Of a DNA stretch of 64,000 bases, positions 243 to 39,296 are shown one piece after another. Position numbers and translations under genes: made by a program. Origin of the DNA: an uncultured Spirochaetota bacterium (GTDB taxonomy: Bacteria; Spirochaetota; Spirochaetia; SZUA-6; DRHE01); NCBI GenBank assembly GCA_963745745.1, contig CAVUYS010000072.1, positions 5,167 through 69,166 of the forward strand, read 5' to 3'. Numbering within the stretch: the first letter of the stretch is position 1; every line of letters starts with the position of its first letter. A model generated the notes under the pieces. That model was given only the letters and a program-made list of their open reading frames with translations, was not told where the DNA came from and did not search any database.

Positions 243-311
243 ACCCATATGAACAATAACAACATGCGCGCCAAAACCAAAGTGAAAGCCGATACAGGTC
301 CCCAAAACAAA

Positions 312-1475: not shown

Positions 1476-1477
1476 CC

Positions 1478-3259: not shown

Positions 3260-3380
3260 ACGGTTTATATTCTCTCCTGTCGATTGGATGTCCATTTCAA
3301 TCCTCCTGGGAAAAATAGTCCACGGTTTACACTGATTACGGGAAAAGAAACAGGTTGAGATAGAAAAAATATCCGGGTTT

Positions 3381-3584: not shown

Positions 3585-3673
3585 GAGTTAAGCCCCTCCG
3601 TGATGATTATGGGTTGAAAGGTGTCAGGTGACTCAGCGTGAGGCAGGAGCAAAGGACTCAACTTCCGGTTGCG

Positions 3674-3823: not shown

Positions 3824-4826
3824 GGTTTTATCCATGGCCGACCCGCCATAGTCCTCTTACACCGGACCCATCCGAGGTCGGTCAGGATGGCCGTAATGCG
3901 GTTCTGTTCAACCCTGCCTTGTCGGCTGTTGGACAGGTCGAGCGCCCGAGAATATCTCGCCGACCGTGACCTGCGACCGGGTCTCGACATATTCGGCGAC
4001 CTTGTCGTGCCATGGGTCAGGCTCATATCGCGCCGCCTGTTCGTCGGTCGCGGTGGCGATGCCCGCTTCGTCGTCGGTCAACCACCATTTTTCGCCAGTA
4101 GATCGGTGTTTAGCCTCGGCCCATAGCTGGTCGCGGTCGCGGGTCAGGGCCTCGATATGAATGACACCGACCTGGACCGGCCAGAACCGACGGTTACCGG
4201 TCTCATCGGGCAAATAGGTCGACTTGTTGGTCGTGCCGCCGAATATGCACTGCCTCGGGTAGACGGTTTCGTGTCTGCCATAGGCGGCGCGGAACCTTTC
4301 GTCGCGGCGAGTGATGAACGCTTTCAGGGTCTCGACGCTCGACCTGCTTGATCTGACCCAGCTCGGCCAGCTCTAAAATCCACTTGCCCCTTACGTGGTC
4401 GGACGCATCCTTTGAGTGGAGGTCGCCGGGGAGGTTATCGCTAAACCATTCACCAGCGAGCACCCGATAGGCCGACGATTTGCTGTTGCCCTGAGGACTC
4501 TCCATCACCAGGACATGGTCGACTTGGCGACCCGGCCGATAGATTCTAGCGATACCCGAGATGAGAAACTTGGCTCCGGCCGACCTAACGAACCGACCGT
4601 GAGCATCATCGTTGATGACGGCACGGCAGTAGGACACGAGCCAATTGTCGAGCCTCGGGTGCTTGTCCCATATCAACCCGCCGACATAGACCTTCGCCGG
4701 ATGGATTCGATACTTGCTGGCGGCGACGCTCCGAATGGCAAGGTCAATCGCATCTATGCCGAGCCTCGGATAATCGCCGAGTTGAAACCACCGCAACGCC
4801 GCCGTGGTATCGGTGTCTCGCCACAC
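3820..4826 (-). pseudogene. VirE-family (virulence-associated protein E / primase-helicase type) P-loop protein; frameshifted and apparently 5'-truncated
   Basis: Motifs seen: WRDTDTTAALRWFQ, IHPAKVYVGGLIWDKHPRLDNWL, VLVMESPQGNSKSS, GNRRFWPV and NRITAILTDLGWVR. They are collinear with VirE-domain proteins of phages and integrative elements. The pieces occupy three frames (4203-4826, 3908-4213, 3820-4026). The homology begins at the junction with the SDR gene. Confidence 0.65.
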
Positions 4827-9554: not shown

Positions 9555-10387
9555 AAGCGGCGACCCGCGCCCGCACCCCCCGGCTGCGTTCACGCCCGCA
9601 GCCCCCCGCGCCCTTCGCGTTGATCACGGGGGCCAGCCAGGGATTGGGCCGGGCCCTGGCCGAGGCCTGCGCCCGGCGAGGCCGGAACCTGGCGCTGGTC
9701 GCCCTTCCCGGCTCGGGGCTGCCCGGGGCGGCCGCCGCGCTGGCGGCGAGCTACCCGATCCGCGTGGAGCTGCTGGAGACGGATCTGGCCGAAGGCGGCG
9801 GCAGCCAGCGCGTTATGAACTGGCTGGCCCGCCGCCGCGTCCCGGTGGACACCCTGATCAACAACGCGGGCATCAGCCACCACGGACCCTTCCGCCAGGC
9901 TCCGCCCGAACGCCTCAAGGACCTGGTGGACCTGAACATCAGGGCCCTGGTCCTGCTGACCCGCCGGCTGCTGCCCGAGCTGGAGCGCCACCCGCGGGCG
10001 CGCATCCTGAACGTGGCCAGCCTGGCCGCCTTCCACGCCATGCCCCACAAGGCGGTCTACGCGCCCTCCAAGACCTTCGTGCTGAACTTCACCCTGGCGC
10101 TGCGCGAGGAGCTGCGCGGCACCGGCGTGCGGGCCAGCGCCCTGTGTCCGGGAGGCATCCGCACCAACCCCGAGGTGCGCGCGCTCATCGTGGGCCTCGG
10201 GCGCCTGGCCCGCCTGAGCAGCCAGGAGCCCGCGGAGGTGGCCGAGTACGCGCTTCACCAACTGGAACGCGGTCGGGCGGTGATCGTGCCCGGCGCCTTC
10301 AACCGGCTCACGCGCCTGGCCGGCAGCCTGGTGCCCAGGCCGCTGGCGCTGGCCTTCATCCGCCGCCGCCTGCGAGGCCCCGGCTGA
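9545..10387 (+). CDS. SDR-family oxidoreductase
   Basis: Motifs seen: ALITGASQGLGRALA, NNAGI and LNVASLAA...YAPSKTFVLNFT. The ATG at 9545 lies in the frame of ORF 9164-10387. Confidence 0.85.
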   Translation: MGLKAATRARTPRLRSRPQPPAPFALITGASQGLGRALAEACARRGRNLALVALPGSGLPGAAAALAASYPIRVELLETDLAEGGGSQRVMNWLARRRVPVDTLINNAGISHHGPFRQAPPERLKDLVDLNIRALVLLTRRLLPELERHPRARILNVASLAAFHAMPHKAVYAPSKTFVLNFTLALREELRGTGVRASALCPGGIRTNPEVRALIVGLGRLARLSSQEPAEVAEYALHQLERGRAVIVPGAFNRLTRLAGSLVPRPLALAFIRRRLRGPG

Positions 10388-10405
10388 GGCCGCGGTGCAA
10401 TCGCA

Positions 10406-11542
10406 GTGAGCCGGGTCGCCCTGCTGCCCTGCCCCTCCTATGAACCGGCCGCCGTCGAGCGGGCCCTGCGCCGGGGCATCCAGATCCTGGGCGGGATGCG
10501 CCGTTTCGTGCGGCCCGGCGAGCGCATCCTGCTGAAGCCCAACATCCTGACCGGCGCGGCCCCGGAGAAGGCCGTCACTACCCACCCGGTCGTGCTTTCC
10601 ACGCTGGGCGGCCTGCTGCGGGAAGCCGGGGCTTCGGTGGCCTTCGGCGATTCGTCGGGCATCGTCGACTCCCGCCAGGCCGCCGCCGGCTGTGGCCTCT
10701 TGGCCGCCGGGGAGCAGGCCGGCCTGGCCTACGAGGATTTCGACCAGGGCCGGCCCCTGGCCCGTTTCCCCGTGGCCCGCTGCCTGCCGGGCTACGACGG
10801 CATCAGCAGCCTGCCCAAGATGAAGACCCACCAGCTCACCCGCTTGAGCGGCGCGGTGAAGAACCTGTTCGGCTGCATCCCAGGGAGGCTGAAACCCCTG
10901 ATGCACCTGCGCCACCCGGACGTGCTGGACTTCAGCCGTATGTTGGCCGGACTGCACCTCCACCTGAAGCCGCGCCTGCACGTGCTGGATGCCGTGACGG
11001 TCATGGAGGGCAACGGGCCGCGCAACGGCGACCCCCGGGCCCTGGGAGCGCTGCTGCTGTCCGAAGACCCCGTGGCCGCCGACGCCACCTTCTGCCGGCT
11101 GATCGACCTCGACCCCGAGCACGTCCCGACCTGCACGGAAGGAGCCCAGGCCGGGCTGGGCTGCTGGCAGGCGGGGGAAATCGAGCTGAAAGAGGGCATC
11201 CCCGCGGATTTCCTCCTGTCCGATTTCCGGGTGATCCGCCACCGGGTGACGCGAGACGGGCTGCTGCGCTACTACCCGCGCCTCCGGCACCTCCTGTTTG
11301 CCCACCCCGTGATCGACCCGGCGCTGTGCCGGCGCTGCGGAGACTGCGTGCGCGTCTGCCCGGTTCCGGACAAGGCGGTGCGCTTCGAGGAGCGCCGCGA
11401 TCCGCCGGTGTTCGACTACCGCCGCTGCATCCGCTGCTGGTGCTGCCAGGAGTCCTGTCCGCATCGGGCCATCCGCGCCGCCTCCCCCTGGCTGGGCAGG
11501 CTGGCAGGCCTGGGCCGGCCTGCCGGCCTGGGCCGCGCTTGA
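10406..11542 (+). CDS. DUF362 domain protein with C-terminal 2x[4Fe-4S] ferredoxin motif
   Basis: Motifs seen: ILLKPNIL, PKMKTHQLT and VMEGNGP, all typical of DUF362. The C-terminus has CRRCGDCVRVCP and CIRCWCCQESCP. Confidence 0.85.
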   Translation: MSRVALLPCPSYEPAAVERALRRGIQILGGMRRFVRPGERILLKPNILTGAAPEKAVTTHPVVLSTLGGLLREAGASVAFGDSSGIVDSRQAAAGCGLLAAGEQAGLAYEDFDQGRPLARFPVARCLPGYDGISSLPKMKTHQLTRLSGAVKNLFGCIPGRLKPLMHLRHPDVLDFSRMLAGLHLHLKPRLHVLDAVTVMEGNGPRNGDPRALGALLLSEDPVAADATFCRLIDLDPEHVPTCTEGAQAGLGCWQAGEIELKEGIPADFLLSDFRVIRHRVTRDGLLRYYPRLRHLLFAHPVIDPALCRRCGDCVRVCPVPDKAVRFEERRDPPVFDYRRCIRCWCCQESCPHRAIRAASPWLGRLAGLGRPAGLGRA

Positions 11543-11555
11543 ACGCTCTCCCGGC

Positions 11556-11584
11556 TTGACAAACCACTCCCGGCACGGTAGATT
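11556..11584 (+). promoter_or_regulatory. Sigma70-like promoter candidate for the RNHCP-rsgA unit
   Basis: TTGACA (11556-11561), a 17-nt spacer, then TAGATT (11579-11584). It lies in a 244-bp intergenic gap. Confidence 0.4.
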
Positions 11585-11786
11585 TCCCAGTACTACCTGC
11601 TTCAAAGGAGGTCGTTCATGTCCATTGCCGCTCCTCGGGATGCCCTGCAATAGGGAGCGAATCCTTCTTCGCTGAATCTCCCGCCGGTTTCGCCGCTCCC
11701 TGACAGGACATCCATCCAGTACAACTCGTTCTACATCGTAGCAGGACGGCCGTTCGCCGTCCTGCGGGCAACATCGAGGTACTTGA

Positions 11787-12236
11787 ATGGAACATTTTGT
11801 CTGCGGCCACTGTGGGCGCACGGTGCCGCCGAGCCTGTTGGGTTCGCATTACCGCAACCACTGTCCGGCCTGCCTGCGCAGCCTTCACCTGGACATCCGC
11901 ACCGGCGACCGCCGCAGCGGCTGCCGTGGGGTCATGGATCCCATCGGCATCTGGGTCAAGGACAAGCGCGAGTGGGCCCTGCTGCATCGCTGCCGCAAGT
12001 GCGGCTTCATCCGGGCCAACCGCATCGCCGGGGATGACAACGAAGTCCTGCTGCTCACCCTGGCCGCGCTGCCGATGAGCCAGCTGCCCTTCCCCGCCGG
12101 CAGGACCCTGCAGCTGCTGCGAGGAGCGCGAAATCGGGGGAGGCGCATCATGAGCCTGCAGGACTGGGGCTGGAGCGCGGAGCGCGAGGCGGAGGCGGCC
12201 GCGCTGCCGCCGCGGGGCTGCGCCTCGCCCGGGTGA
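11787..12236 (+). CDS. RNHCP domain protein (3' end uncertain)
   Basis: CGHCG...YRNHCPACLRSLH...CRGVMDPIGIW...LLHRCRKCGF is the RNHCP zinc-ribbon pattern. The tail of the ORF (from 12150) actually encodes the rsgA N-terminus in the same frame. Confidence 0.7.
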   Translation: MEHFVCGHCGRTVPPSLLGSHYRNHCPACLRSLHLDIRTGDRRSGCRGVMDPIGIWVKDKREWALLHRCRKCGFIRANRIAGDDNEVLLLTLAALPMSQLPFPAGRTLQLLRGARNRGRRIMSLQDWGWSAEREAEAAALPPRGCASPG

Positions 12237-13225
12237 TCGGGCGGGGCCGCGGGCTGTACGCCCTGAGCGACGGGGAGGACACCCGCCTGGCAGCGGTCTC
12301 CGGGGCCTTCGGCTACCGGGCCGCGCTGCCCTCCGACTATCCGGCCGCCGGGGACTTCGTGGCCTGCCGGGAGGAGCAGGGCACCTGGGTCATCGAACAG
12401 GTGCTCCCGCGCCGGGGCGTGCTCTCCCGCCTGGCGGCGGGACCCAGGGCCGAGGAGCAGGTGCTGGCGGCGAACCTGGACGCGGTATTCCTGGTCTTCG
12501 CCGCCGGCACCCAGCGCGGCTTCCCGCCCCGCCTGGTGGAGCGCCTCTTGGCCCAGGTGCGGGAAAGCGGGGCCGCGCCGCTCATCCTCCTGAACAAGGC
12601 CGACCTGGCGCAGGACCGGAGGGAGCTGCAGGAGCAGGCCGAGTCCTGCGCACCGGGGGTGCCGCTGCTGTTCACCTCCGCCCTGAGCGGGGAGAACCTG
12701 GAGGGCTTGAGGGCGAGCCTGGAGCCCGGCAGGACCTACTACTTCCTGGGCAAGTCAGGGGTGGGCAAGTCCTCCCTGCTCAACGCCCTGTTCGGCAGGG
12801 AGGTGATGCGCACCGCCGAGATCCGGGCCGCGGACGGCCGGGGACGCCACACCACCACCAGCCGGGAGCTGTTCCTCCTTCCCGGCGGGGCCATCCTGGT
12901 GGACTCCCCGGGCCTGCGGGAGGCCGCGCTCTGGGCCGGGGAGGACAGCGTGGAAGACGCCTTCCCGGAGGTGAGCGCCCTGGCCGAAGGGTGCCGCTTC
13001 CGGGACTGCAGCCACGAGGGGGAGCCGGGCTGCGCCGTGCAGGAAGCGCTGGTCGAGGGCAGCCTGGAGCTGGGCCGCTACGAGAGCTACCTGGCCTTTC
13101 GGCGGGAGGCCCGCTACCACCGCCTGCGCGGCGACCAGAACGCCCAGCGCGTGGAACGGCTGCGATGGAAGAAGATCGCCAAGTCGGTGAAGGAGTTGTA
13201 TCGGGAGAGGGGGAAACCCGGCTGA
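12150..13225 (+). CDS. rsgA: Ribosome small-subunit-dependent GTPase A (one frameshift near 12205)
   Basis: MSLQDWGW... then LARVIGRGRGLYAL in the next frame. Further motifs: LNKADL, GKSGVGKSSLLNAL, DSPG and the zinc motif CRFRDCSHEGEPGC. Confidence 0.85.
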
Positions 13226-13249
13226 GCGGGGAGCCGCGCCTTACCCGCC

Positions 13250-14236
13250 TTACCGCCCCGGGGAGCCCTCCGGAGGACCCTCTGCAGGTTCCTGCGCCGC
13301 CTCGGCGCCCGCTTCGGCCGCCGGGGCTCCCGCCCCCAGGGGGGCCCGCCGGCGCGCCAGCCGGCTCTCCAGCACCGCGTAGAGGATCAGGGCCAGGACC
13401 GTGGCGAAAAAGGGCATGGCCAGCAGGAGCCCGGCCGGGATGCTGGAGGTGGTCTGCAGCAGGTTGCTCAGGTACTCCACGAAGCCGAACACCAGGGAGC
13501 CGATCAGGATGCCCAGGGGCGTGCGGTTGCCCAGGTAGATGATCACCAGGGCGATCCAGCCCCGCCCGGAGGTGACGTTGGGCACGAAGGCGCCCAGCGT
13601 CAAGGTCAGGGAGGCGCCCCCCAGGGCGCAGGCGAAGCCCGAGATCAGCAGCGCGGCGATGTGCATCCCGCGCACGTTGATGCCCAGCGCCCGCGAGGCC
13701 TCCGGGTCCTGGCCGACGGCCCGCAGCCGCATGCCGAACGGCAGGCGGTAGATGACCAGGTAGGCCGCCCCCAGCAGGACCCAGGAAAAGTAGGTGAGCA
13801 GGTTGTGGCCCGACAGCAGCTCGCCCAGGACGGGGATGGAGGAGATCCCGGGGATGACCAGCGGCTCCAGGGTCGGCATGCCGGGGAAGGTCACCGAACC
13901 GGTCTGGCCGTAAATCTTGAAGGAGAGCACGATCGAGAGCGCCGCGGCCAGCAGGTTGGTGGCCAGCCCGCAGATGAAGATGTTGGCCCGCAGCCCCAGA
14001 GCGATGCCGCCGAAAACGGCGGTGAGCAGGAGGGTGGCCGCCACGCCCGCCAGCACCCCCAGGAACAGGTTGCCGGTGGCCACGGTGAACACCACGGAGA
14101 AGAACGCCGAGTTCAGCATCAGGCCCTCGAGGGCGATGTTCAGCATGCCCGCCAGGGAGGAGAACAAGCCGCCGGTGGCGGCCAGCAGGAACGGGGTCAT
14201 GATGGCGATGGTGTCGCCGATGGCCTGCAGGCTCAC
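13250..14236 (-). CDS. ABC transporter permease (BMP/nucleoside-type, second permease)
   Basis: The GTG start at 14236 overlaps the upstream stop (GTGA). The 328-aa polytopic protein contains NIALEGLML and RLRAVGQDPEASRALGINV. Confidence 0.9.
   Translation of the reverse strand: MSLQAIGDTIAIMTPFLLAATGGLFSSLAGMLNIALEGLMLNSAFFSVVFTVATGNLFLGVLAGVAATLLLTAVFGGIALGLRANIFICGLATNLLAAALSIVLSFKIYGQTGSVTFPGMPTLEPLVIPGISSIPVLGELLSGHNLLTYFSWVLLGAAYLVIYRLPFGMRLRAVGQDPEASRALGINVRGMHIAALLISGFACALGGASLTLTLGAFVPNVTSGRGWIALVIIYLGNRTPLGILIGSLVFGFVEYLSNLLQTTSSIPAGLLLAMPFFATVLALILYAVLESRLARRRAPLGAGAPAAEAGAEAAQEPAEGPPEGSPGR

Positions 14237-18427: not shown

Positions 18428-18431
<4 letters not shown>
18012..18431 (-). 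CDS. arfB: Alternative ribosome-rescue factor ArfB (GGQ peptidyl-tRNA hydrolase)
   Basis: [34 protein letters not shown], followed by a basic C-terminal tail. The ATG overlaps the carB stop (ATGA). Confidence 0.85.
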
Positions 18432-21622
<3,191 letters not shown>

Positions 21623-21630
<8 letters not shown>

Positions 21631-22811
21631 GGGGCCTGGCCTCCCGCGCCAGCGCCAGGAAGTCGTCGAACAGGAAGAGGGTGTCGTGCGGCCCGGGGGC
21701 GGCCTCCGGGTGGAACTGCACGCCCAGCGCCGGCAGGCTGCGGTGACGCAGGCCCTCGTTGGTCCGGTCGTTCAGGTTGAGCAGGGTGGCCTGGGCCCGG
21801 CCCCCGGTGAAGCTGTCGGGGTCCACGGCGAAACCGTGGTTCTGGGTGGTGATGAACACCCTGCCGGAAGCCTCTTCCCGCACCGGGTGGTTGGAGCCGT
21901 GATGCCCGAAAGGCAGCTTGAAGGTCCTGGCCCCCAGGGCCTGGGCCAGGATCTGGTGCCCCAGGCAGATGCCGAAGACCGGCAGCCTCTCCAGCAGCTC
22001 GGAGACGACGGCCACGATTTCCGGCAGGGTGGCCGGATCGCCGGGACCGTTGGACAGGAGCACCCCCTGCGGGTGGGAGCGCAGCAGCTCGCGGGCGCCG
22101 GTGTAGGCGGGAAACACCTCCACCCGGCAGCCGCGGCGGGCCAGCTCGTGCAGGCTGCGGGCCTTGACCCCGCAGTCCAGCACCGCGATGCGCGGGCCGG
22201 GTCCGTCGGCGTACAGGTAGGGCTCGGGGGTGGAGACCTCCCGCACCAGGCTGCGCCCCATCATCGAGGGGGAGGCGCGGACCCTGGCCAGGAAGGCCTG
22301 CGGGTCGGCGGTGTCGGTGGTCAGCCCGCAGCGCATGGCGCCCTTGTCCCGGATGTGGCGGGTCAGGGCCCGGGTGTCCACGCCCTCCACCCCCGGCACG
22401 CGGCTTCCGGCCAGGCAGTCGGCCAGGCTGCCGGTGACCGGGTTGTACTGGGCGCTGGCGTCCTGGCGGGCCTCCTGCGGGATCGTAGGAGGGCCGGGCG
22501 AATACGGACCGCCTCTCAGCGGGCTGCGGGGCGTCCTCGGACAGCGGCCGGCCGCCGTACTCCCGCACCACCAGGCCTTCGGTCCAGACCCGCGCGGACT
22601 CCTCCTCCCGCCGGCGGATGCCGTAGGTGCCGATCATGGGCGCGGTGAGCAGCACGATCTGTCCGGCGTAGGAAGGGTCGCTGATCACCTCCTGGTAGCC
22701 GGTGAGGCCGGTGTTGAACACCAGCTCCCCGAAGGCCTCCCCCGGCCCGGTGAAGCTGTGCCCGTGGTGCAGGGTCCCGTCCTCGAGCATCAGCATGGCG
22801 TCCATGGGCAT
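21623..22811 (-). CDS. carA: Carbamoyl-phosphate synthase small subunit (frameshifted between about 22400 and 22540)
   Basis: N-terminus: [47 protein letters not shown]-terminal part: [12 protein letters not shown]...[10 protein letters not shown]...HGFAV...QFHPEA. Confidence 0.9.
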
Positions 22812-22877: not shown

Positions 22878-23780
22878 ATGCAGATCGGAATCATCGGTTT
22901 GGGGAAAATGGGCGGCAACATGGCCAGGCGACTGGCCGCCGCGGGGCATCGGGTGGCGGTCCACGACCTGGACCCCGCCCGGATCGAGGAGCTGCGGCGG
23001 GCGGGCGCCGACGGGGCGGGCTCCGCTCGCGAGCTGGTGGAGCATCTGGCCCCGCGGCGGGTGGTTCTCCTGATGCTTCCGGCCGGGGAGCCGACCGAGG
23101 CCCTGGTCCAGGGCCTGGCCGGCCTGCTGGCCTCCGGGGACATCCTGATCGACGGGGGCAACGGCTTTTACCGGGACGACGTGCGGCGCGCGGCGGCCCT
23201 GGCTCCCCGCGGCATCCGCTATCTGGATGCGGGGGTGTCCGGCGGGATCTGGGGGCTCAAAGAGGGCTACTGCACCATGGTGGGCGGGGAGAAGGAAGCC
23301 TTCCAGCACGTCGAGCCGCTGCTGCGGGACCTGGCCCCGCCGGGCGGCTACCTGCATTGCGGTCCGGCCGGCGCCGGGCATTTCCTGAAGATGGTCCACA
23401 ACGGCATCGAGTACGCGCTCATGGAGGCCTACGCCGAGGGCTTCGAGCTGCTGGAGGCCTCCCCGTACGGCCAGTCCCTGGATTTCGCCGGGGTGGCCGC
23501 CCTGTGGAACCGGGGCAGTGTGATCCGCTCCTGGCTGCTGGAGCTGCTGGAAGGGGCCTTCCGGAAGGATTCCCGATTGGAGCGGATCCGCGGCCACGTG
23601 GAGGACACCGGCGAGGGGCGCTGGACCGTGCAGCAGGCCGTGGAATCCGGGGTGCAGGCCACGGCGATCGCCCACGCCCTGTTCCGGCGCTTCGACTCCC
23701 GCAAGCCCGACCCGTTCGGCAACCGGGTGCTGGCGGCGCTGCGCGCCGAGTTCGGCGGCCACGCGGTGAAAAAGGCATGA
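22878..23780 (+). CDS. gnd: Short-type 6-phosphogluconate dehydrogenase (decarboxylating)
   Basis: Motifs seen: MQIGIIGLGKMGGNMARRL, GGNGFYRDD and GAGHFLKMVHNGIEYALMEAYAEG. About 300 aa. Its stop overlaps the zwf start. Confidence 0.85.
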   Translation: MQIGIIGLGKMGGNMARRLAAAGHRVAVHDLDPARIEELRRAGADGAGSARELVEHLAPRRVVLLMLPAGEPTEALVQGLAGLLASGDILIDGGNGFYRDDVRRAAALAPRGIRYLDAGVSGGIWGLKEGYCTMVGGEKEAFQHVEPLLRDLAPPGGYLHCGPAGAGHFLKMVHNGIEYALMEAYAEGFELLEASPYGQSLDFAGVAALWNRGSVIRSWLLELLEGAFRKDSRLERIRGHVEDTGEGRWTVQQAVESGVQATAIAHALFRRFDSRKPDPFGNRVLAALRAEFGGHAVKKA

Positions 23781-25302
23781 GCCTGCCTCTGGAGACCAGC
23801 CTGCCGCCGGGGGACATGCGCGGCTCCTTCTGCATCGAGGAAATCCCCCGGGAGGCCGGCCTGGTGATCTTCGGGGCCTCGGGGGACCTCACCTCGCGCA
23901 AGCTGGTGCCGGCGCTGTTCAGCCTGTATCGCAAGAACCGCCTGCCCCAGGGCTTCTTCCTGGTCGGCTGCGCCCGCAGCGCCTTCCAGGAGAGCGCCTG
24001 GCGCTCCAGCCTGGCCGCCGGCCTCCGGCGGCAGGCCCCGCCGGAGGAGGTCCTGTCCGGCTTCCTGCAGCGCTGCTTCTACCTGGGCGGCGACTACCGC
24101 GACCCCGGCCTGTACGCGCGACTGGCCTCCCGCCTGAAGGAGCTGGACCGCCGCCTGCGGGGCCAGGCCAACCACGTGTTCTACCTGGCCACCCCGCCGG
24201 ACCTGTACCAGCCGGTGGTCGAGGGCCTGGCCGCCGCCGGCCTGGCCCGCGATCGCCCGGAGGCCACCGCGCGGGCCATCTTCGAGAAGCCCTTCGGCCG
24301 GGACCTGGCCAGCGCCCTGGAGCTGGACCGCGTCCTGCGCGCCGTGCTGGCCGAGCACCAGATCTACCGCATCGACCACTACCTGGGCAAGGAGACCGTG
24401 CAGAACATCCTGGTGTTCCGCTTCGCCAACGCGATCTTCGAGCCGCTCTGGAACCGCAGCTACATCGACCACGTGCAGATCACCGTGGCCGAGGAGCGTG
24501 GGCGTGGAGCACCGCGGCCGGCTACTACGAGCAGGCCGGCGTGCTGCGCGACATGTTCCAGAACCACCTGCTGCAGCTGCTGGCCCTGGTGGCCATGGAG
24601 CCGCCCGCCTCCTTCGACGCCGACGCGGTGCGCGACGAGAAGGTCAAGGTGCTGCGCTCGATCCGCCCCTACCAGCGGCAGGAGGTGGCGGGCAACTTCG
24701 TGCGCGGCCAGTACGAAGGCTACCGGCGGGAGCCCGGGGTGGCGCCGGATTCCGCGACGGAGACCTTCGCGGCCGCCCGCCTGTTCATCGACAACTGGCG
24801 CTGGCAAGGCGTGCCGTTCTACCTGCGGGCCGGCAAGCGCCTGGCGCGCAAGACCAGCGTGATCGTGGTCAGCTTCAAGAGCGTGCCCCACTCCATGTTC
24901 CATCCCCTCACTCCGGCGGACCTGCGGCCCAACACCCTGCTGTTCCACGTCCAGCCGGAGGAGGGCATCTGCCTGCGCTTCCAGGCCAAGCGGCCCGGGC
25001 CCCGCCTGTGCATGGACACCACGGAGATGACCTTCTACTACCGGGACATGGTCAAGGAAGAGCTGCCCGACGCCTACGAGCGGCTCCTGCTGGACTGCCT
25101 GAACGCCGACCCGACCCTGTTCATCCGGCACGATGCGGTGGAGGTTTCCTGGTCCCTGCTCATGCCGGTGCTGGACCTCTGGGCGGAAGAGCGCGCGCCG
25201 GACTCCTCGGCAGCCTTGCACCCCTACCCGGCCGGTTCCTGGGGGCCCGAGGCCACGGAGGCGCTGCCCGCCGCCGACGGGCGCTCCTGGGCGGCCGTCT
25301 GA
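23777..25302 (+). CDS. zwf: Glucose-6-phosphate dehydrogenase (one frameshift near 24500)
   Basis: Motifs seen: VIFGASGDLTSRKL, EKPFGRDL and RIDHYLGKE. Then, in frame 24541-25302, LRDMFQNHLLQLLALVAMEPP. Confidence 0.92.
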
Positions 25303-27850: not shown

Positions 27851-27980
27851 CTGATCAGGGGCACCGGCTGCAGGGTGCTCAATTTTCAGCCCCTGCTGGA
27901 CGGCTCCCCGATATGGGGCTATCTTGCTGGGAGCCGCTGCGGGTGGAAAACATGTTTCGAAAGCCCACGAGGATTGACTC

Positions 27981-29237
27981 ATGAAGAAGCCCCAAGAACG
28001 CTACGACTTCGGCGGAGTCCCTGGCAACCTGGTGCTCCTCGTCCTTCTCCCCGCCATCGTGTATTACCTGTACTTCTGTCTGCGCTTCAACGACGGCAGG
28101 CTCTTTCCAGCGGGGGTGAGCCGCCAGGAGCTGCTGGCATTCTGGAAGGACATCGTCCCCACGGGCAGGGCCTTCATGACCTACGGGATCTGGATCGGTT
28201 TCCAGGCGCTGCTCCAGGTTCTCTTGCCCGGCAGGAAGGTGCACGGCCGCCTGCTCGAAGCGGGAATGCGTCTGAGCTACCGCCTGAACGGCCTGGCCTC
28301 GTTGCTCATCACCATCGGGGCGTATTGGACGCTGGTTCTGACCGGAGTCGTCGATCCAAGGGCGGTGTTCCGCGGAATCGGCCCCTTGATTTCGGCAGCC
28401 ATGATTTTCGCCTATTCCTTCAGCCTCTTTCTATACCTCTATGGCCGCCTGGGCTCCCCAAAGCAGGCAGTCCCCGCGAGCGAGCTTCACCGCTTCTTCA
28501 TGGGATACTCCCTCAACCCCCGGATCGGGAGCTTCGACCTCAAGCTTTTCTTCGAAGCCAGGCCGAGCCTCATCGGCTGGATCATCCTCACCTGGGTGTA
28601 TGCGGCCGTGCAGTACCAGAACACGGGGGTCGTGAGCAGGTCCATGGTGCTGGTCTGCCTGTTCCAGTTCGCGTACGTCCTGGACTACTTCATTCACGAA
28701 GAGGCGATTCTCTCCACCATGGACATAGTGCACGATCACTTCGGGTTCATGCTCTGTTTCGGCGATACCGTGTGGGTGCCCTTCACCTACTCGGTGCAGG
28801 CCTATTACCTGATCAGCCGGGGGAAGACCCTCGCCCCATGGGCGATGGTCCTCTTTGGCCTTCTTTTCGCGGCCGGCTATCTGTTCTTCCGGGTCACCAA
28901 TCTTCAGAAGCATCGCTTCCGGAAGGATCCGTCCCGTCCGATATGGGGACGTCCGCCGGAGTACATTCAGACCGCTCAGGGCAACAGGCTGCTGGTGTCC
29001 GGGTTCTGGGGGTGGTCCCGGCACTTCAACTACGTGGGAGACATCCTGATGGCAGCGGCTTGGTCTCTTCCCTGCCTGTTTGGCTCGCTCCTGCCTTATT
29101 TCTATCCCCTGTACTTCGCCGTCCTGCTGATCCACCGGGAACGGAGGGACTACCGGCGCTGCCTGTCGAGGTACGGGAAGGCCTGGGAGGAGTACTGCCG
29201 GCGGGTGCGGTGGAGAATCCTCCCGGGGATCTATTAG
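27981..29237 (+). CDS. ERG4/ERG24-family sterol reductase, closest in pattern to C-14 sterol reductases (ERG24/TM7SF2/LBR)
   Basis: Intact 418-aa polytopic ORF with N-terminal YDFGGVPGNL. The C-terminus LLVSGFWGWSRHFNYVGDILMAAAWSLPC...LLPYFYPLYFAVLLIHRERRDYRRCLSRYGKAWEEYCRRVRWRILPGIY is nearly collinear with the animal TM7SF2/LBR C-terminus as I recall it. Confidence 0.85.
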   Translation: MKKPQERYDFGGVPGNLVLLVLLPAIVYYLYFCLRFNDGRLFPAGVSRQELLAFWKDIVPTGRAFMTYGIWIGFQALLQVLLPGRKVHGRLLEAGMRLSYRLNGLASLLITIGAYWTLVLTGVVDPRAVFRGIGPLISAAMIFAYSFSLFLYLYGRLGSPKQAVPASELHRFFMGYSLNPRIGSFDLKLFFEARPSLIGWIILTWVYAAVQYQNTGVVSRSMVLVCLFQFAYVLDYFIHEEAILSTMDIVHDHFGFMLCFGDTVWVPFTYSVQAYYLISRGKTLAPWAMVLFGLLFAAGYLFFRVTNLQKHRFRKDPSRPIWGRPPEYIQTAQGNRLLVSGFWGWSRHFNYVGDILMAAAWSLPCLFGSLLPYFYPLYFAVLLIHRERRDYRRCLSRYGKAWEEYCRRVRWRILPGIY

Positions 29238-29815
29238 GCGAATCCTCGCGAGAAGGGGTTCGGGCGCCACATCCGCACCGCCAGGAGCAGGGGGATCAGC
29301 TTGTAGGGGAGGTTGTACAGCAGGAACTTCCCCGGGCGAAGCACGGCCAGCGACGGGGTGAGGCCCTTCTGCGCCAGCTCCGCCGCAGACTTCACCCCCC
29401 CGGCGCCCATCATCTCGAACAGCGCCAGGTCGCCGGCAAACTCCACGACCAGCAGAACGATCATGCTCTCGATGATCATCCCCGCGTAGAGCAGAGCAAA
29501 GGGGCGGATCCAGTTTTTCCCTGTGACGAAGGCCACGACCAGTACGATGTAGAAGGGCCCGAAGAGAAACGCGGAGATGGCGGTCATCGCCCGCAGGAAG
29601 GTGGGGTTGGCGATGAGCAAGGGATCGTTGCCCAGGGCGTAGGAATGATACACCGCCCGAGCCCAGAAGTAGCTGCTGTTGGGGTCGGGCCTGGCCACGG
29701 CGTTGACCAGGTCCGCCGCGAACGAGGTGAACACGAAGGCGGAAAAGACGATGATGAAGATCCAGTCGTAGCCGCGCTGCCTCAGTGGCAGGCTCTTCGC
29801 ACTGACAGTTTCCAT
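29234..29815 (-). CDS. EXPERA-domain (TMEM97/sigma-2, EBP-like; DUF2781) four-TM protein
   Basis: 193 aa. GNDPLLIANPTFLRAMTAISAFLFGPFYIVLVVAFVTGKNWIRPFALLYAGMIIESMIVLL aligns by eye to human TMEM97 [61 protein letters not shown]. The C-terminal YNLPYKLIPLLLAVRMWR matches YAPYLLIPFILLIFMLR. Confidence 0.7.
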   Translation of the reverse strand: METVSAKSLPLRQRGYDWIFIIVFSAFVFTSFAADLVNAVARPDPNSSYFWARAVYHSYALGNDPLLIANPTFLRAMTAISAFLFGPFYIVLVVAFVTGKNWIRPFALLYAGMIIESMIVLLVVEFAGDLALFEMMGAGGVKSAAELAQKGLTPSLAVLRPGKFLLYNLPYKLIPLLLAVRMWRPNPFSRGFA

Positions 29816-29890: not shown

Positions 29891-31213
29891 CTACGCCGGC
29901 TGGGCCAACCGCCGGATGATGTTGTAGGTGCCCAGCCGGGGGGCGCGGCTGAAGCCGTTGAAGGCGGCGCGGGCCAGCGCCCCGGAAGCCAGCAGCTCGA
30001 AGAACCAGCTCTCGAAGTCGCGCATGTCCCCCTGGTCGATGCCCGCCTCCAGCCCCAGCAGCCATTCCCGGTTGAAGTCCTCCTGGGAACCGATCGTGGG
30101 CGCCATGAGGATGGGCAGGCCCAGGGCGGCGTAGAAGGAAAGCTCCGAAGGCTTGGTCCAGAGGATGTCGGTTTCCCGCAGGGTCCGGTTGAAGGTCTGG
30201 AAGTAGCGCTGCTTGTCCGGCTCGAAGAGGATCTCCAGGCCGCGGCCCTCCAGCTCGGCGAGGCCCGCGGCCGCCAGGCCCTCCCGGAAGATCTCCCGCA
30301 CCCGGGCGCTCACCCCGGCCACCAGCACCAGGCGCAGCTCCCCGCCGCGGATGCGCCGGGCCAGGATCGAGGCGGCCTGCAGGCCGATGTCCGCCTGGGC
30401 GCCCGCCCCGCCCACCGCGAACAGCACGGTGAGGGGCCGGGGCGGCTGCTCGGGCCGCCGGTCCGGCGCCAGGGCGGCCAGTACCTGCTCGGCGTTGGGG
30501 CCCAGGAAGCTGCGCCGGGGATCCAGCTTGGCCAGGCGGAAGGCGGTGTCGGCGCGCAGGATGTCGAAATCCGGCCAGCCCAGGTTCTCCTCCGGCAGGG
30601 GGAAACCGGTGAGCTGGATGCGCTCCGCGGGAACCCCGTAGAGCTTCAGGCGCTCGCACACCCGGGGGGTCGGGGCGAAGTAGAAGATGCGGCTGGAGCG
30701 CGGGTTGGCGGCCACCCAGTCGCGACTGCAGTCCGCGTCGCAGACCACGCAGTAGATGAGGCCCGGATAGCCGTGCAGGTCCGCCATGTGGGCCGTGGAA
30801 AAGAAGGTGGAAAGGTAGGGCAGATGCTCCCGGGCCCAGAGCCCCTCGATCAGGCTGCGCCCCCAGTTCCTGCGGCGGATCAGGCGCGTGGCCCCCAGCA
30901 CCTGCAGGGTCGGCCGGGACAGGTCCCGGTTCGGGTCGAAGGGCGGGATGGCCTGGAAGCGGTCGTAGAGGCGGAAGGCCAGCGGCCCGAGCAGGGGCAC
31001 GCGCTTGAAGCGCGACACGGTGTTGTAGAAGCGCTCCAGGTCGGCGAAGACCTGCCGGTCGGAATCCGGCATGCCCGGGTAGTGGTTGGCATTGATCACC
31101 CCGCCCTGGGCGATGCGGGCCAGCGGGTAGGCGGCCCGCTGGTGGCCGTAACCCATGTCCACGGTGACCAGCCAGGCCCTGGCGTCCGGAAGCTCTCTTT
31201 GCCCTTCGCTCAC
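29891..31213 (-). CDS. Glycosyltransferase, MGDG-synthase/MurG-like (GT28-type) fold
   Basis: GTG start at 31213 preceded by AGGAGGG. The N-terminal motif VTVDMGYGHQRAAYPL (G-x-G-H) is typical of MGDG-synthase-type lipid glycosyltransferases. 440 aa, intact. Confidence 0.65.
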   Translation of the reverse strand: MSEGQRELPDARAWLVTVDMGYGHQRAAYPLARIAQGGVINANHYPGMPDSDRQVFADLERFYNTVSRFKRVPLLGPLAFRLYDRFQAIPPFDPNRDLSRPTLQVLGATRLIRRRNWGRSLIEGLWAREHLPYLSTFFSTAHMADLHGYPGLIYCVVCDADCSRDWVAANPRSSRIFYFAPTPRVCERLKLYGVPAERIQLTGFPLPEENLGWPDFDILRADTAFRLAKLDPRRSFLGPNAEQVLAALAPDRRPEQPPRPLTVLFAVGGAGAQADIGLQAASILARRIRGGELRLVLVAGVSARVREIFREGLAAAGLAELEGRGLEILFEPDKQRYFQTFNRTLRETDILWTKPSELSFYAALGLPILMAPTIGSQEDFNREWLLGLEAGIDQGDMRDFESWFFELLASGALARAAFNGFSRAPRLGTYNIIRRLAQPA

Positions 31214-31233
31214 TTCGTGTCCCTCCTGTACGC

Positions 31234-32330
31234 CTAGCGCATGACCTGGTATTCGCCCTGGCCGCCCAGCTGCAGGATCACCTGGCTGCCGTCCGCCTCT
31301 TCCAGGATGCCGGAGAATCCTCCCTCCAGGCGGTAGATGACCGGCCGCCGGATCAGGGCCTCCGCGATCGCCCGGAAGGCCGGCGGCAGCTTTTTCAATA
31401 TATCGTTGATGTAGTACAGCCGCGACACGGTGAACACTCCTTCCAGGGTGCGGCCGTCCTGCCGGGCCCTGAGGTGGAAACGGTGCGGAAAGGGGAAGGG
31501 CGCGCCTTCCTCCTTGCGGTACTCCTCGGCCTGGAACTCGTGGTCGGAGGTGGCCATCAGCCACTCCCCGCCCCTGGCCAGCAGCAGGGTCGCCGACCTC
31601 TGCGAGCCGTAGGCCCGATGGGCCGCCGACTCCGACACGCTGAGCATCCAGGGCTCTCCCTGCCCGGCGGGGCCGAACACCCGGAAGGTGCTCTGCTCGG
31701 GATTGATGCGGGACATGGGCATGGACACCACGCCCCGGTCGGCGTAGCCCCAGCCCAGCACGGGGCGCCATCGCCCGCGCACCGTCATGCTGCCGGAGAC
31801 CTCGGCGAACGGGGAGGTGACCGAAAGGCGCGTGTACACGTCCCCGCGCCGGTTCAGGCGGGTGAACCCGTCGCCGGGCTTCCAGGGATTGAGCAGGTTG
31901 CGAAACTCCAGGTCGCAGGAAAAATCCGGCAGCCGCAGGCGGAGGCGGGCCCCTTCCCGGTCACCCTCCAGGACGCTCTCGCCGAAGCTGTAGCGCAGCC
32001 GGTCGGGGGCGGCCTCCAGCTCCTCCAGCTTGGTCTCCAGGGCGAAGGTCTCGGCGCCGGGCTCCGTGCTGAGCACCAGCAGGCCGGCCTCCCCGATCGG
32101 GCCGTAGCGCCACTGGAACAGGCTCAGGGTGAGGGCCTGACCCGTCGACCAGCGCGGCGTTGAAGTACCAGAAACGGCTTCGGAAATGGCCGGCGTAGGG
32201 ATCGTCGAGGAGAAGATCCTCGTCGCTCAGGGTCACCTGCTCCGGCGGGGGCCAGGCGGGAGAGCAATGGGGGGCGGCGACCGCCGCCAGGAGCAGGGCA
32301 AGGATCGCTCGCAGATATCCGCGGCCGCAT
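31234..32330 (-). CDS. Exported hypothetical protein (possibly lipocalin/AttH-like), two frameshifts as assembled
   Basis: ATG at 32330 (MRPR...), then a frame slip into LRAILALLLAAVAAPHCSPAWPPPEQVTLSDEDLLLDDPYAGHFRSRFWYFNAALVDGSG. A further slip near 32150 leads into ORF 31234-32076. No family is recognised with confidence. Confidence 0.45.
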
Positions 32331-36380: not shown

Positions 36381-37892
36381 GCCACCCCCCTGCGGCGCAT
36401 TGCGGCCGCAACGAATCCGAACAATGCCAGCACCGCCATGAACTCCAGCCTTCCGGCCCACATGTTGAAGATGTAGGTGGCCTTCAGGACCGCGGGCATC
36501 GCGGCGGCCGTGACCCCTACGGACAGGCCGACGTTGCCGGATACGGAGGCCGCCTCGAAGGCCGCTTCCAGCAAGGGATAGCCGCAGAGGCTGCCGACCA
36601 GGGTGGCCAGGGCGAAGATGGCCAGGTACATCAGGACCACCAGCGCGGCGCTGCGCACCTGCGCCTCACCCAGGATCCGGGGCCCAGGTAGTGGAAGCGC
36701 TGGGCGAACACGGCGGAGCCCGGGCTTCAGGAGGCGGCGGGTCTCCTGCACGATCGGCCTTCGAAAAGGATCCCGACGCGCAGCGCCTTGAAGCCGCCCG
36801 CCGTCGAACAGGCGCTGCCCCCCAGCAGCATCGCCAGGATCATGGCCAGCAGCGCGACCTCGCCCCACTCCAGGACCAGCTGGCGCGCAGTACAAGGTCA
36901 TGAAACCCGGTGGTGGTGTGGCCGGAGATGAGCTGGTAGAAGCCCTTGCGGAACAGGGCCACGGCCCCGGGGTACACGTCCAGCTTCAGCAGGCCCCAGC
37001 AGGCGATCACGGTGAGGACGGCGACGCTGCCGGCGAAGGAAACGGTTTCGATGTTGCGGAACATTTCCTTGCGGTCACCGCTCCACACGGCGTGATGCAG
37101 GGCGAAGTTGAAGGAACCGGTCACGAAGAAAAGCAGCGTCACGACCTCGTAGCCCAGGCTGTGGTAGTAGAGGATGTTCTGGGACATGGGCGCGAAGCCG
37201 CCCGTGCTCCAGGCCGCCAGGTACACCCACAGGCCGTGCAGCAGGGCCCGCAGGGGAGAGAGCCCGATCGCCATCCCGACCACCCAGAAGGCCGCGGTGC
37301 CGACCACCAGGTAGACCAGGCTGATCTTCCAGATCGTCTTGGCCGTGTGCAGGACGCTGGGGAACAGCTTCTCGTCCTTGGCCTCGCCCACGTACAGCGG
37401 GTACCCTCCCCCGCCGGCGCTGGACAGGAAGGCCAGCGCGAGCACGATGATGCCCTGCCCGCCGACGAAGGTGAGCAGGTGGCGCCAGGTGTTGAGGCTT
37501 ACCGTGACGTGATCCAGGTCCTGGATGAGGGTGAGCCCGGTGGTGGTCAGCCCGCTCATCACGTCGAACATGCAGTCCAGGTAGCTCAGGTAATGTCCGC
37601 TCAGCCAATACGGAACCGCGGCTACCGCCATCGCGGCCAGCCACGAGATGGCCGCCGTTACCATGCCGTGGATCCAGGAGGACCTCCCCTCCCCTTCCCC
37701 GAGCCAGGCCAGCGAACAGCCGGCCAGCAGGGCAGCCCCCAGGCCGACCAGGAAGTCGACGGCCGCGGCCCATTCCCGGAAGGCCAGGGCCGTCAGGAGG
37801 GGCAAAACCATCAGCAGTCCCACGCCGATCAGGACCTTGCCGGTATAGGAACAGATCAGCTGCAGGTCGCGCAGGCGCGGCTTGGCGAGCAT
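36377..37892 (-). CDS. trkH: TrkH/KtrB-family potassium transporter subunit (at least two frameshifts between 36650 and 36900)
   Basis: Motifs seen: MSGLTTTGLT, TFVGGQGI, AAWSTGGF and ISGHTTTGF (selectivity-filter-like repeats) in ORF 36840-37892. The C-terminus SVSGNVGLSVGVT lies in ORF 36377-36901. Confidence 0.85.
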
Positions 37893-37895
37893 GGC

Positions 37896-38015
37896 TCAAA
37901 CCAGAGAGAACAGAAAGCTCACCAGGAGGCCGGCAGCCGCCAGCAAAGCCACGAAGGCCAGCTCCGTCAGGATCCCGGCAATCAGGCCCGACCGGCTTCG
38001 CGGACGTGCGTTCAA
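37896..38015 (-). CDS. Possible 39-aa single-TM peptide between trkA and trkH
   Basis: The TTG at 38015 overlaps the trkA stop (TTGA). Translation: LNARPRSRSGLIAGILTELAFVALLAAAGLLVSFLFSLV. It appears in the track only as the tail of ORF 37896-38159. Confidence 0.2.
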   Translation of the reverse strand: MNARPRSRSGLIAGILTELAFVALLAAAGLLVSFLFSLV

Positions 38016-38677
38016 CGCGCGCCTCCCAGAAGCACCGCCTCCAGGGACTCCACCTCCTGCCGTCGGGCCAGGGCGAAGACCCGGTCCCCCGCCTGGAGCA
38101 CCGTACCGCCTCGGGGGAAGTCGATCCGCCCATTGCGGATGACCGCGATCAGCACGCATTCCTGCGGCAGCGCGAGCTGGGAGACCGCCAGCCCCGCCAC
38201 GGGGGAATCCTCTCTGAGCTGGGCCTCGATGATCTCCACCTCCCCCTGCTGGAAGATCGAGAAGATGCGCAAGCCGTTGAGCGGCAGGGCGTTCTGGATC
38301 ATCTGCGCGGCCAGGGCGGTGGAGCTGACCGTCGCGTCCACCCCCAGGGCCTTGAAGACGGCTTCATTTTTCGGGTCATTGACCCGGGCGATGGTCAGGG
38401 GCGCCCGGAAATAGCGCTTGGCCAGCTGGCAGATCACCAGGTTGTCCGCGTCCCGGTCGGTTACGGCCACCACGTACTGCGCTTCCTCGGCGCCGGCATC
38501 CCGCAGCACGTTGAGATCCGAGCCGTCGCCGTTGACCACCGTGATATCCAGCTTTTCGGCCAGCTCCCGGCAGCGCTCCGCATCCCCTTCCACCAGGCCG
38601 ACGTGATTGCCATCCGACAGCAGGGTCTTGGCCAGGTGATAGCCGATTTCCCCGCCCCCCACGATCAGGATGTACAT
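38012..38677 (-). CDS. trkA: TrkA/KtrA-type K+ transport NAD-binding regulatory subunit
   Basis: MYILIVGGGEIGYHLAKTL (RCK_N Rossmann fold) plus an RCK_C domain. 221 aa, intact. Confidence 0.9.
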   Translation of the reverse strand: MYILIVGGGEIGYHLAKTLLSDGNHVGLVEGDAERCRELAEKLDITVVNGDGSDLNVLRDAGAEEAQYVVAVTDRDADNLVICQLAKRYFRAPLTIARVNDPKNEAVFKALGVDATVSSTALAAQMIQNALPLNGLRIFSIFQQGEVEIIEAQLREDSPVAGLAVSQLALPQECVLIAVIRNGRIDFPRGGTVLQAGDRVFALARRQEVESLEAVLLGGAR

Positions 38678-38686
38678 ATGCCGGGC

Positions 38687-39296
38687 TCAGGAAGCCCGCT
38701 TGCGGGTCAGGATCAGCGTGTCGTTCTTCTCGATGATCCTGTCGGGATTCGCGGCCGCCAGCTGGCCGTCGAAGGCGATCCCGATCAGCTTCCGGCCCTC
38801 CGGGATGTCGATCCGGCCCGCCGCCCGGCCGACCCACTCGGCCAGGGGCTTCACCCCGACGAGGTCCACGTCGATGGTTCCAGCCAGCGCCGAATACTGG
38901 CTGCGCTGGATCAGGCCCAGCATCTGGTTGATGCCGGTGCTCGTCGGGCACACGGTGTCCAGCCCCAGGCCCCGATAAAACCTCTCCCGCTCGGGATCCG
39001 TGATGCGGGTCAGGGTCAGCGGAACCTGGTAGATCTTCCTGGCCAGCTGCACCACCAGGACGTTGACGTTGTCATCCGCGGTGGCGGCCACCACCAGCTC
39101 AGCGCGCTCCACGCCCGCCTTGAGCAGCACGTCCTGTTCCGCGGGGTCCCCGCGGATCGTGACCCCGTCAAAATCGCTGCCCAGCCGGGCTCAGATCGAT
39201 GTCCTCGCCCACGACCACCACGTCGTGTCCCTTGGCCGAAAGGGCCTTGGCCAGGCCCGCGCCCAGTCGGCCGCAGCCTGCAATGATTACGAACAT
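38687..39296 (-). CDS. trkA: Second TrkA/KtrA-type regulatory subunit (one inserted base near 39190)
   Basis: MFVIIAGCGRLGAGLAKAL...DVVVVGEDIDLS then, in the frame of ORF 38687-39130, DVLLKAGVERAELVVAATADDNVN. Length is 610 nt, one base more than a multiple of 3. Confidence 0.85.

Follow-up and report, generated by a model that had tools for sequence, protein, structure and literature searches.

We describe here two adjacent genes found in a stretch of 64,000 nucleotides of DNA from an uncultured Spirochaetota bacterium (assembly GCA_963745745.1, contig CAVUYS010000072.1, positions 5,167 to 69,166; hereafter the window). One encodes a sterol reductase of the ERG4/ERG24 family, the other a small membrane protein of the EXPERA superfamily that resembles the human sigma-2 receptor TMEM97. 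The two genes are kept side by side across the Spirochaetota and probably constitute a functionally linked sterol-type tailoring unit. The reading that we favour, with a confidence slightly better than even, is that of a native and conserved two-gene module of a lineage of this phylum, in which a reductase and an isomerase-type partner would tailor the tetracyclic nucleus of a sterol or of a sterol-like triterpenoid. An earlier note, made from the letters of the window alone, had placed both open reading frames (ORFs), with the overlap of their stop codons, where we find them (Table 1), and had proposed for the pair a tailoring of the sterol ring, or else the binding or salvage of sterols; the family identities of the two proteins, which rest on matches far above chance level, their strong co-occurrence and the native character of the contig now support this interpretation.

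The reductase matches the Pfam family ERG4_ERG24 (PF01222) with 386.4 bits (E 2e-115, cutoff 27), and the alignment runs end to end, residues 6-418 of 418 being placed on profile positions 3-432 of 432. It contains all the motifs that had been quoted for it (LLVSGFWGWSRHFNYVGD, AWSLPC, LLPYFYPLYF and HRERRDYRRCLSRYGKAWEEYCRRVRWRILPGIY). The alternative of a DUF1295 or isoprenylcysteine methyltransferase enzyme fails, DUF1295 yielding 19.6 bits, under its cutoff of 20.4, and the NCBIfam isoprenylcysteine methyltransferase model giving no match to the window reductase. The best solved relative is MaSR1, the crystallised delta14-sterol reductase of Methylotuvimicrobium alcaliphilum (PDB 4QUV; 398 bits, 46.1% identity over 410 amino acids), followed by a fungal delta14-sterol reductase (9L5R, 225 bits), and the relatives of the protein are annotated by JGI as 'delta14-sterol reductase'. 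The residues Y232 and D354 correspond to Y241 and D363 of MaSR1, which are predicted to be catalytic and are equivalent to Y257 and D374 of ScERG24 (PMC12489058), while N350 and R386 correspond to N359 and R395, which lie in the NADPH pocket of MaSR1 and are the counterparts of the LBR disease residues N547 and R583 (PMC4951196). By its nearest characterised homolog, the protein is filed here as a putative reductase of the delta14-sterol type (EC 1.3.1.70). Its description as eukaryote-like in the earlier note holds at the level of the family; both genes find their closest relatives among bacteria.

The partner protein belongs to the EXPERA/EBP family, as had been read from its sequence: PF05241 is matched over residues 56-182 with 55.8 bits against a gathering score of 25.7, and every listed relative of the protein also has this domain. 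A search with the single sequence reaches the sigma-2 receptor at an E value of 0.39 only, and a profile built from 19 sequences of the family reaches it at 1e-5. Aligned by hhalign with human TMEM97, the same profile covers 158 columns (probability 91.6%, E 8e-7), which bears out the alignment along most of the length first made by eye; with human EBP, the sterol delta8-delta7 isomerase of animals and plants (EC 5.3.3.5; PDB 6OHT, 8W0R), the alignment is weak (probability 6.6%). The two human sequences used for these comparisons were checked against PDB 6OHT and 7M93. The AlphaFold2 model of the protein (pLDDT 79.5, pTM 0.72) contains long helices at 17-40, 72-98, 101-127 and 161-181, forming a four-helix fold for which Foldseek returns the sigma-2 receptor (TM score 0.58-0.72) and then EBP (0.52-0.60), both with a probability of 1.00, all further matches having a probability of at most 0.15. 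TMEM97 (PDB 7M93-7MFI) is therefore the best match by structure and by profile and is of similar size, with about 24% identity; the window protein differs from it by a longer loop between the third and fourth transmembrane helices (TM3 and TM4). EBP shares the Pfam family and the fold, but its sequence relation is very weak, and its 230 residues include an extra N-terminal helix.

The comparison of the functional residues leads to a similar picture. D35 corresponds to D29 of sigma-2 and to E80 of EBP and is found in all bacterial clades and in TMEM97, and D64, the counterpart of sigma-2 D56 and EBP D108, is invariant across all aligned sequences; these two positions form the acidic pair of the superfamily (EBP E80 and D108) singled out by Sanchez-Pulido and Ponting (PMC4263179). 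N168 takes the place of the essential N193 of EBP, where sigma-2 has Tyr147. Y171 corresponds to Y150 of sigma-2 and to W196 of EBP, with the aromatic character kept by a tyrosine instead of a tryptophan, and P175 to P154 and P200, respectively; the PY..IP motif of TM4 is shared with TMEM97. D35, D64, N168 and Y171 are kept in every bacterial EXPERA clade. Among the residues of the sigma-2 ligand site, D29, D56 and Y150 are thus retained, whereas Glu73 and Tyr147 are replaced by Ser81 and Asn168. By its sequence, the protein appears as a member of a distinct TMEM97-like bacterial clade, which keeps the acidic pair of the superfamily and not the full catalytic set of EBP. Of the label TMEM97/EBP-type of the earlier note, the first half is the more apt: the protein is closer to TMEM97 than to EBP by profile and by fold, and His76 and Glu122 of EBP are missing.

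The link between the two genes is carried by their genomic distribution. When one genome of each GTDB species was searched with the EXPERA profile, 34 loci emerged, half of which (17) lie in metagenome-assembled genomes (MAGs) of Spirochaetota, Leptospirales or Spirochaetia, at 65-82% identity to the window protein; 13 belong to Mycobacterium, Mycolicibacterium or one Actinomycetota MAG (43-54%) and four to Competibacteraceae, Sandaracinaceae and a 'delta proteobacterium' (34-38%). The reductase directly adjoins the EXPERA gene in 15 of the 16 informative loci of Spirochaetota species, L020 being the exception and L036, which is cut by the end of its contig, being left out; when two metagenomic contexts and the window are included, adjacency is found in 17 of 18. 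The co-occurrence in related genomes on which the earlier proposal depended is consequently strong. In fourteen contexts the EXPERA gene follows the reductase in tandem (reductase->EXPERA), 1-349 bp apart, and in three, including the window, the two genes are convergent. Since the hosts of the pair span a wide range of locus GC (0.35-0.58, plus 0.70 for the window), the pair is an old one in the lineage and has been ameliorated in each genome. All-against-all clustering of the neighbouring ORFs revealed no other neighbour conserved across the lineage. Compared with the window proteins, the EXPERA proteins of these genomes are 65-78% identical and the reductases 51-65%, so that the former are the better conserved of the two.

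In other bacteria, the position beside the reductase is occupied by a different protein. Four Methylomicrobium genomes carry, under consecutive locus tags, genes that Lee, Wei and Welander (2023) enter in their Supplementary Data 1 as 'C-14 reductase' and 'C-8 isomerase', and one of these pairs, MEALZ_1312 (MaSR1) and MEALZ_1311, lies far from the SMO-OSC-CYP51 cluster. In M. alcaliphilum, we find a gene of the ERG2_Sigma1R family (PF04622, 176 bits; L042:9301-9981) 20 bp upstream of MaSR1; a Ca. Methylomirabilis MAG (L044:7444-8004), with a 4-bp overlap, and a Myxococcales MAG (L045:7392-7955) show this ERG2->ERG24 tandem too. Neither the window nor any of the spirochaetal loci contains an ERG2-like sequence. 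The reductases divide into two groups according to the partner beside them, with 46-52% identity between the groups and 52-74% (EXPERA-linked, spirochaetal) or 56-60% (ERG2-linked) within them. The ERG2/sigma-1 fold is unrelated to EXPERA, and the partner slot thus shows a non-homologous replacement: beside the delta14-reductase stands one or the other of the two eukaryotic C-8 isomerase families, ERG2, used by fungi, or EBP, used by animals and plants. ERG2 and EBP both work by way of carbocationic intermediates, and both are classical targets of the morpholine fungicides. The replacement is our strongest argument that the EXPERA protein would perform a step equivalent or mechanistically adjacent to that of ERG2, or else would escort the sterol.

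The methanotroph pair therefore resembles that of the window as a two-gene unit, placed apart from any OSC/CYP51 cluster, that combines an ERG4/ERG24 reductase, carrying the same functional residues, with a small membrane-associated partner of a sterol-isomerase/sigma-receptor family. It differs by the fold of this partner, by the gene order (isomerase->reductase against reductase->EXPERA in the spirochaetal tandem) and by its hosts, for which, unlike the Spirochaetota, sterol production is known or suspected. Systems of this kind are already known, insofar as ERG24 homologs and C-8 isomerase homologs have been recorded in bacteria, and side by side in Methylomicrobium. Our literature search found no description of the EXPERA-type partner, of its two-gene conservation or of its presence in Spirochaetota. 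For the EXPERA version, this agrees with the earlier note, to which no such described pairing in bacteria was known; the analogous adjacency of reductase and C-8 isomerase had been tabulated by Lee et al. (2023). A further setting of the reductase is seen in a myxobacterial MAG of the Sandaracinaceae (L047:6378-10269 and 10263-13498), where a GMC-oxidoreductase->3beta-HSD->ERG24 operon encodes a reductase 51% identical to that of the window; after it come GDSL lipase and MBOAT genes on the opposite strand. This cluster is plainly one of sterol-type chemistry, and it looks like a set of genes for the modification of the sterol A ring and nucleus and for esterification.

In the model we propose, the reductase would act on a 14-demethylated delta8,14 sterol. 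By analogy with ERG24 and MaSR1, Tyr232 would protonate the double bond and a hydride would be delivered from the NADPH held by Asn350 and Arg386, with the assistance of Asp354. The EXPERA protein, because it fills the slot of the ERG2/sigma-1 C-8 isomerase, would most likely perform the next double-bond operation, a delta8->delta7-type isomerisation via a carbocation, in which Asp35 and Asp64 would serve as acid and base and Tyr171 and Asn168 would line the pocket. The sterol chemistry of the Sandaracinaceae operon and, in human cells, the build-up of FF-MAS, on which the delta14-reductase acts, after knockout of TMEM97 (PMC13382799) also speak for this model. That the EXPERA protein is itself a catalyst is a proposition to which we give somewhat less than an even chance.

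Several observations weigh against this model. The essential His76 of EBP is replaced by Ser31 (the register being inferred, one helical turn before D35), and its essential Glu122 aligns with Thr78. For TMEM97, no isomerase activity has been demonstrated (PMC13382799). In the window the two genes are convergent and hence not co-transcribed. As the earlier note had remarked for the oxidosqualene cyclase OSC and the squalene epoxidase SQMO, a sterol pathway is not apparent in the vicinity: a Pfam scan of 37 window ORFs, which included all long ORFs of coding-like GC content at third codon positions (GC3), detected no OSC, SQMO, CYP51 or SdmAB, and in 17 other lineages none of the four lies less than 10 kb from the pair. 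The table of bacterial sterol-gene carriers of Lee et al. (2023) contains zero Spirochaetota. Finally, the delta14 regiospecificity of the reductase is putative, with delta7 or delta24(28) specificity as the alternatives. Three sources of substrate can be envisaged: synthesis de novo by enzymes encoded elsewhere in the genome, a sterol surrogate, or scavenging. Borrelia and Brachyspira are examples of sterol-scavenging spirochaetes.

These points give weight to two other explanations, neither of which we consider likely. The reductase alone might catalyse, the EXPERA protein then either regulating it or, as a non-catalytic sterol binder like TMEM97, capturing, presenting or releasing its hydrophobic substrate or product. 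We regard this as rather unlikely, although it would agree well with the closer relation of the protein to sigma-2/TMEM97 than to EBP by profile and fold, and with the retention of the sigma-2 ligand-binding pair D29/D56 in a protein deprived of the two EBP residues. It would also agree with the properties of TMEM97, which contains bound cholesterol in the crystal 7MFI, a Foldseek match of our model, and whose knockout in human cells leads to the accumulation of FF-MAS, the substrate of the delta14-reductase, even though the protein is not known as an isomerase (PMC13382799). Yet the same slot holds a bona fide isomerase family, ERG2, in other bacteria, Asn168 matches the essential Asn193 of EBP and not Tyr147 of sigma-2, and the pairing of EXPERA homologs with other enzymes that modify C=C bonds, described below, fits a catalytic role equally well; moreover, in human cells TMEM97 did not co-immunoprecipitate with TM7SF2 (PMC13382799). 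The other explanation, to which we grant a small probability, is that the pair acts in a sterol-surrogate pathway, on a polycyclic or linear isoprenoid that is not a sterol and is made without oxygen, such as the product of a cyclase related to squalene-hopene cyclase (SHC). The lack of O2-dependent sterol genes in the regions scanned is what such a pathway would leave, SHC-like cyclases of uncharacterised function exist in Spirochaetota (PMC12324236), and the partners of the EXPERA homologs in Mycobacteria and Competibacteraceae point to carotenoid- or lipid-type chemistry. Against it, the reductase possesses every delta14-sterol reductase functional residue tested and is 46-52% identical to reductases found in a sterol context, and a 'Spirochaeta sp.' is on record with a fusion of CYP51 to ferredoxin (PMC7947880), so that the delta8,14 substrate could be within reach of at least some members of the phylum.

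It could also be argued that the juxtaposition is meaningless, through chance, an assembly artefact, a chimera or decaying foreign DNA, as the local GC content (0.60-0.62 around the pair against about 0.70 in the window), the frameshifted genes of the window and the convergent, non-operonic arrangement might suggest. However, the GC dip is confined to codon positions 1 and 2, an effect typical of hydrophobic membrane proteins, and the GC3 of the reductase (0.83) and of the EXPERA gene (0.85) matches that of the remainder of the window and genome. The flanks are composed of ordinary bacterial genes (GroEL, RsgA, Kdp, Trk, ABC transporters, pentose-phosphate enzymes), the window GroEL shares a 90%-identity cluster with the GroEL of 'Spirochaetes bacterium GWB1_66_5' (OHD20001.1), and the nearest named relatives of both focal proteins come from Spirochaetia, Leptospirales and Spirochaetota MAGs. 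On account of the GC3, the flanks, the GroEL cluster and these relatives, the host is a high-GC spirochaete, and the eukaryote-bacterium chimera that the earlier note had envisaged is excluded. Two independent Logan assemblies contain identical focal proteins in the same arrangement; together with the GC3 and the GroEL, they also refute the idea that the GC dip at 26-30 kb stems from a chimera or from a recent horizontal transfer. Both ORFs are intact and have kept their functional residues, and the adjacency recurs in 17 independent MAGs and metagenomes, which speaks against a single mis-assembled reference as its source. Repeated chance adjacency is implausible because the EXPERA family is rare, our profile search retrieving 502 of 1.84 billion representative proteins at E<=1e-3 and 14 at E<=1e-30. 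Chance or artefact is for these reasons effectively excluded.

The earlier note had described the two genes as intact in a window full of frameshifts. The first part is correct, and the second is borne out at least in part: the glucose-6-phosphate dehydrogenase gene G6PD (23861-25290) changes frame at about 24502-24517, the RF-1 gene (60738-61817) has a scrambled middle so that its RF-1 domain is matched only in part, and carA, carB, TrkA and TrkH are present as fragments (18428-22633; 36840-39190). These disrupted housekeeping genes are consistent with assembly indel errors or with pseudogenisation.

Outside the Spirochaetota, the EXPERA homologs keep other company (Table 1). In all 13 mycobacterial-type loci, a FAD oxidoreductase of 476 amino acids resembling CrtI/CrtO lies directly upstream of the EXPERA homolog, and this pair, conserved in environmental mycobacteria, sits between serA and ilvC-ilvN-ilvB. 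In both Competibacteraceae loci, the upstream gene belongs to the fatty-acid-desaturase family PF00487, its product having a weak resemblance to the carotene hydroxylase CrtR. Each lineage thus pairs its EXPERA protein with a different enzyme of lipid C=C bonds, which fits a general role in the handling or shifting of double bonds in hydrophobic substrates. The variety of these partners also keeps a non-sterol substrate possible for the spirochaetal pair.

Two eukaryotic or pathogen systems offer further points of comparison, TMEM97 itself presenting no neighbouring-gene logic. In mammals, EBP and DHCR7 reportedly form the antiestrogen-binding site, or cholesterol-epoxide hydrolase complex, as de Medina et al. 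are said to have described in PNAS in 2010. Like the window pair, this complex combines an EXPERA protein with a reductase of the ERG4/ERG24 family, the two being joined in the mammalian case both physically and functionally; it is located in the eukaryotic endoplasmic reticulum and its reductase is of the delta7 subfamily. A eukaryote-like sterol reductase of Coxiella burnetii, attributed to Gilk et al. in 2010, is said to modify host-derived sterols. Reductases of this type are bacterial ERG4/ERG24 proteins found without evident sterol synthesis, and are as such a precedent for salvage. They belong to intracellular pathogens, seem to have been acquired recently from eukaryotes and have no EXPERA partner, whereas the spirochaetal pair is old in its lineage and its hosts are free-living in the environment.

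If our reading is correct, the genes for the tailoring of the sterol nucleus extend to the Spirochaetota, a phylum that is missing from the published catalogues of bacterial sterol genes and of which many members scavenge sterols. The window pair mirrors the reductase-isomerase pair of the sterol-making methanotrophs and offers a testable clue to the original function of the TMEM97 family; it also fits the finding, made in 2026, that the loss of TMEM97 blocks cells at the substrate of the delta14-reductase (PMC13382799). TMEM97/sigma-2 being a drug target, a small bacterial homolog tied to one enzyme would be a tractable system in which to test catalysis. Hoshino and Gaucher concluded that EBP evolved within eukaryotes, while ERG2 and ERG24 have bacterial roots (PMC8237579), and a rare bacterial EXPERA clade tied to ERG24 bears directly on this inference. 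Because bacteria show the same split between sigma-1/ERG2 and sigma-2/EBP, the dichotomy between the ERG2 of fungi and the EBP of animals and plants may predate the eukaryotes. Could the whole EXPERA superfamily (EBP, TMEM97/sigma-2, TM6SF2) have arisen not in eukaryotes but in bacteria, where it would have shifted double bonds as a catalyst at the side of lipid C=C oxidoreductases, with a TMEM97-like protein working beside the delta14-reductase as the C-8 isomerase of a sterol or sterol-surrogate pathway in Spirochaetota, a phylum not known to make sterols? We hold so broad a proposal to be unlikely. If so, the ancestral role of sigma-2/TMEM97 would be an enzymatic cooperation with delta14-reduction, which would explain the FF-MAS of TMEM97-deficient cells. 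Should these spirochaetes, which are widespread in sediments, groundwater and digesters, turn out to produce sterols or to remodel them, this would also affect how sterane and stanol biomarkers are interpreted.

Table 1. Coordinates of the reductase and EXPERA genes of the window and of the EXPERA pairs of other lineages.
Feature	Location	Strand	Remarks
ERG4/ERG24 NADPH-dependent sterol reductase, 418 aa	27981..29237	+	Putatively delta14-type by nearest characterised homolog
TMEM97/sigma-2-like EXPERA membrane protein, 193 aa	29234..29815	-	Proposed C-8 isomerase-type or sterol-handling partner
4-bp overlap TTAG of the two convergent stops	29234..29237	.	Read in the sequence; reductase TAG at 29235-29237 (+), EXPERA TAA at 29234-29236 (-)
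GAGGA Shine-Dalgarno-like motif	27970..27974	+	7-11 nt 5' of the reductase ATG; consensus resemblance only
Mycobacterial-type FAD oxidoreductase + EXPERA	L023-L034, L037; e.g. L034:8434-9864 and 9905-10534		
Competibacteraceae desaturase-family gene + EXPERA	L038:8751-9914 + 9974-10477; L041 likewise		

A scan for promoters and terminators showed no terminator-like hairpin between the reductase and EXPERA genes, and Rfam and tRNA scans of the window gave no matches. On the strand of the EXPERA gene and 75 bp upstream of it, the region 29891-32076 (-) carries a DUF6938 ORF, listed as 626 aa with a true start that is probably later, and an ORF of 280 aa with a weak match to Svf1-like lipocalin; both may be co-transcribed with the EXPERA gene in the window. 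Searches of the PDB with these two ORFs and with the flanking LA_2272-repeat ORF gave no informative match, and all three were rejected as members of the module, not being kept near the pair elsewhere. A 6-phosphogluconate dehydrogenase gene (6PGD) and G6PD, which generate NADPH, lie close to the pair (22878-25290), and both are also found near it, in another order, in a marine-sediment lineage (L001:10728-13927) and not in the other 15 lineages. They were not retained as an NADPH-supplying part of the module, since they adjoin it nowhere but in the window and in L001-L003; their proximity is possibly a link to NADPH supply or a relic of synteny. One subclade of the spirochaetal loci shares neighbouring genes for HDOD, cyclic-nucleotide-binding (cNMP-binding) and adenylate cyclase proteins, which were likewise set aside as partners, since they are subclade-specific signalling genes with no sterol link.

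Two further candidates were discarded. The 8,14-Bsr reductase (J Bacteriol 2026), considered as a counterpart of the window reductase, is an NTF2-fold protein unrelated to it. At L046:8001-9874, an ERG24-type reductase has a convergent neighbour of 194 aa with a 4-bp stop overlap like that of the window; as a third type of partner it was rejected, the protein being soluble, without Pfam family and unrelated to EXPERA or ERG2, and the shared geometry is a coincidence. The presence of ERG2 and ERG24 in Methylomirabilis suggests a capacity for sterol tailoring in a nitrite-dependent methane oxidiser.

Elsewhere in the window, the region 47737-55103 (-) holds three consecutive large ORFs of 709, 1120 and 627 aa, with strongly coding-like GC3 and zero Pfam matches, after which comes a Big_5 surface protein. 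Positions 1-4000 have a GC content of 0.40-0.47, against about 0.70 in the remainder, and contain short ORFs, one of which carries a fragment of an AAA_21/AbiEii-type ATPase; this segment is probably of foreign origin, as a defence or mobile island, or else results from a join in the assembly.

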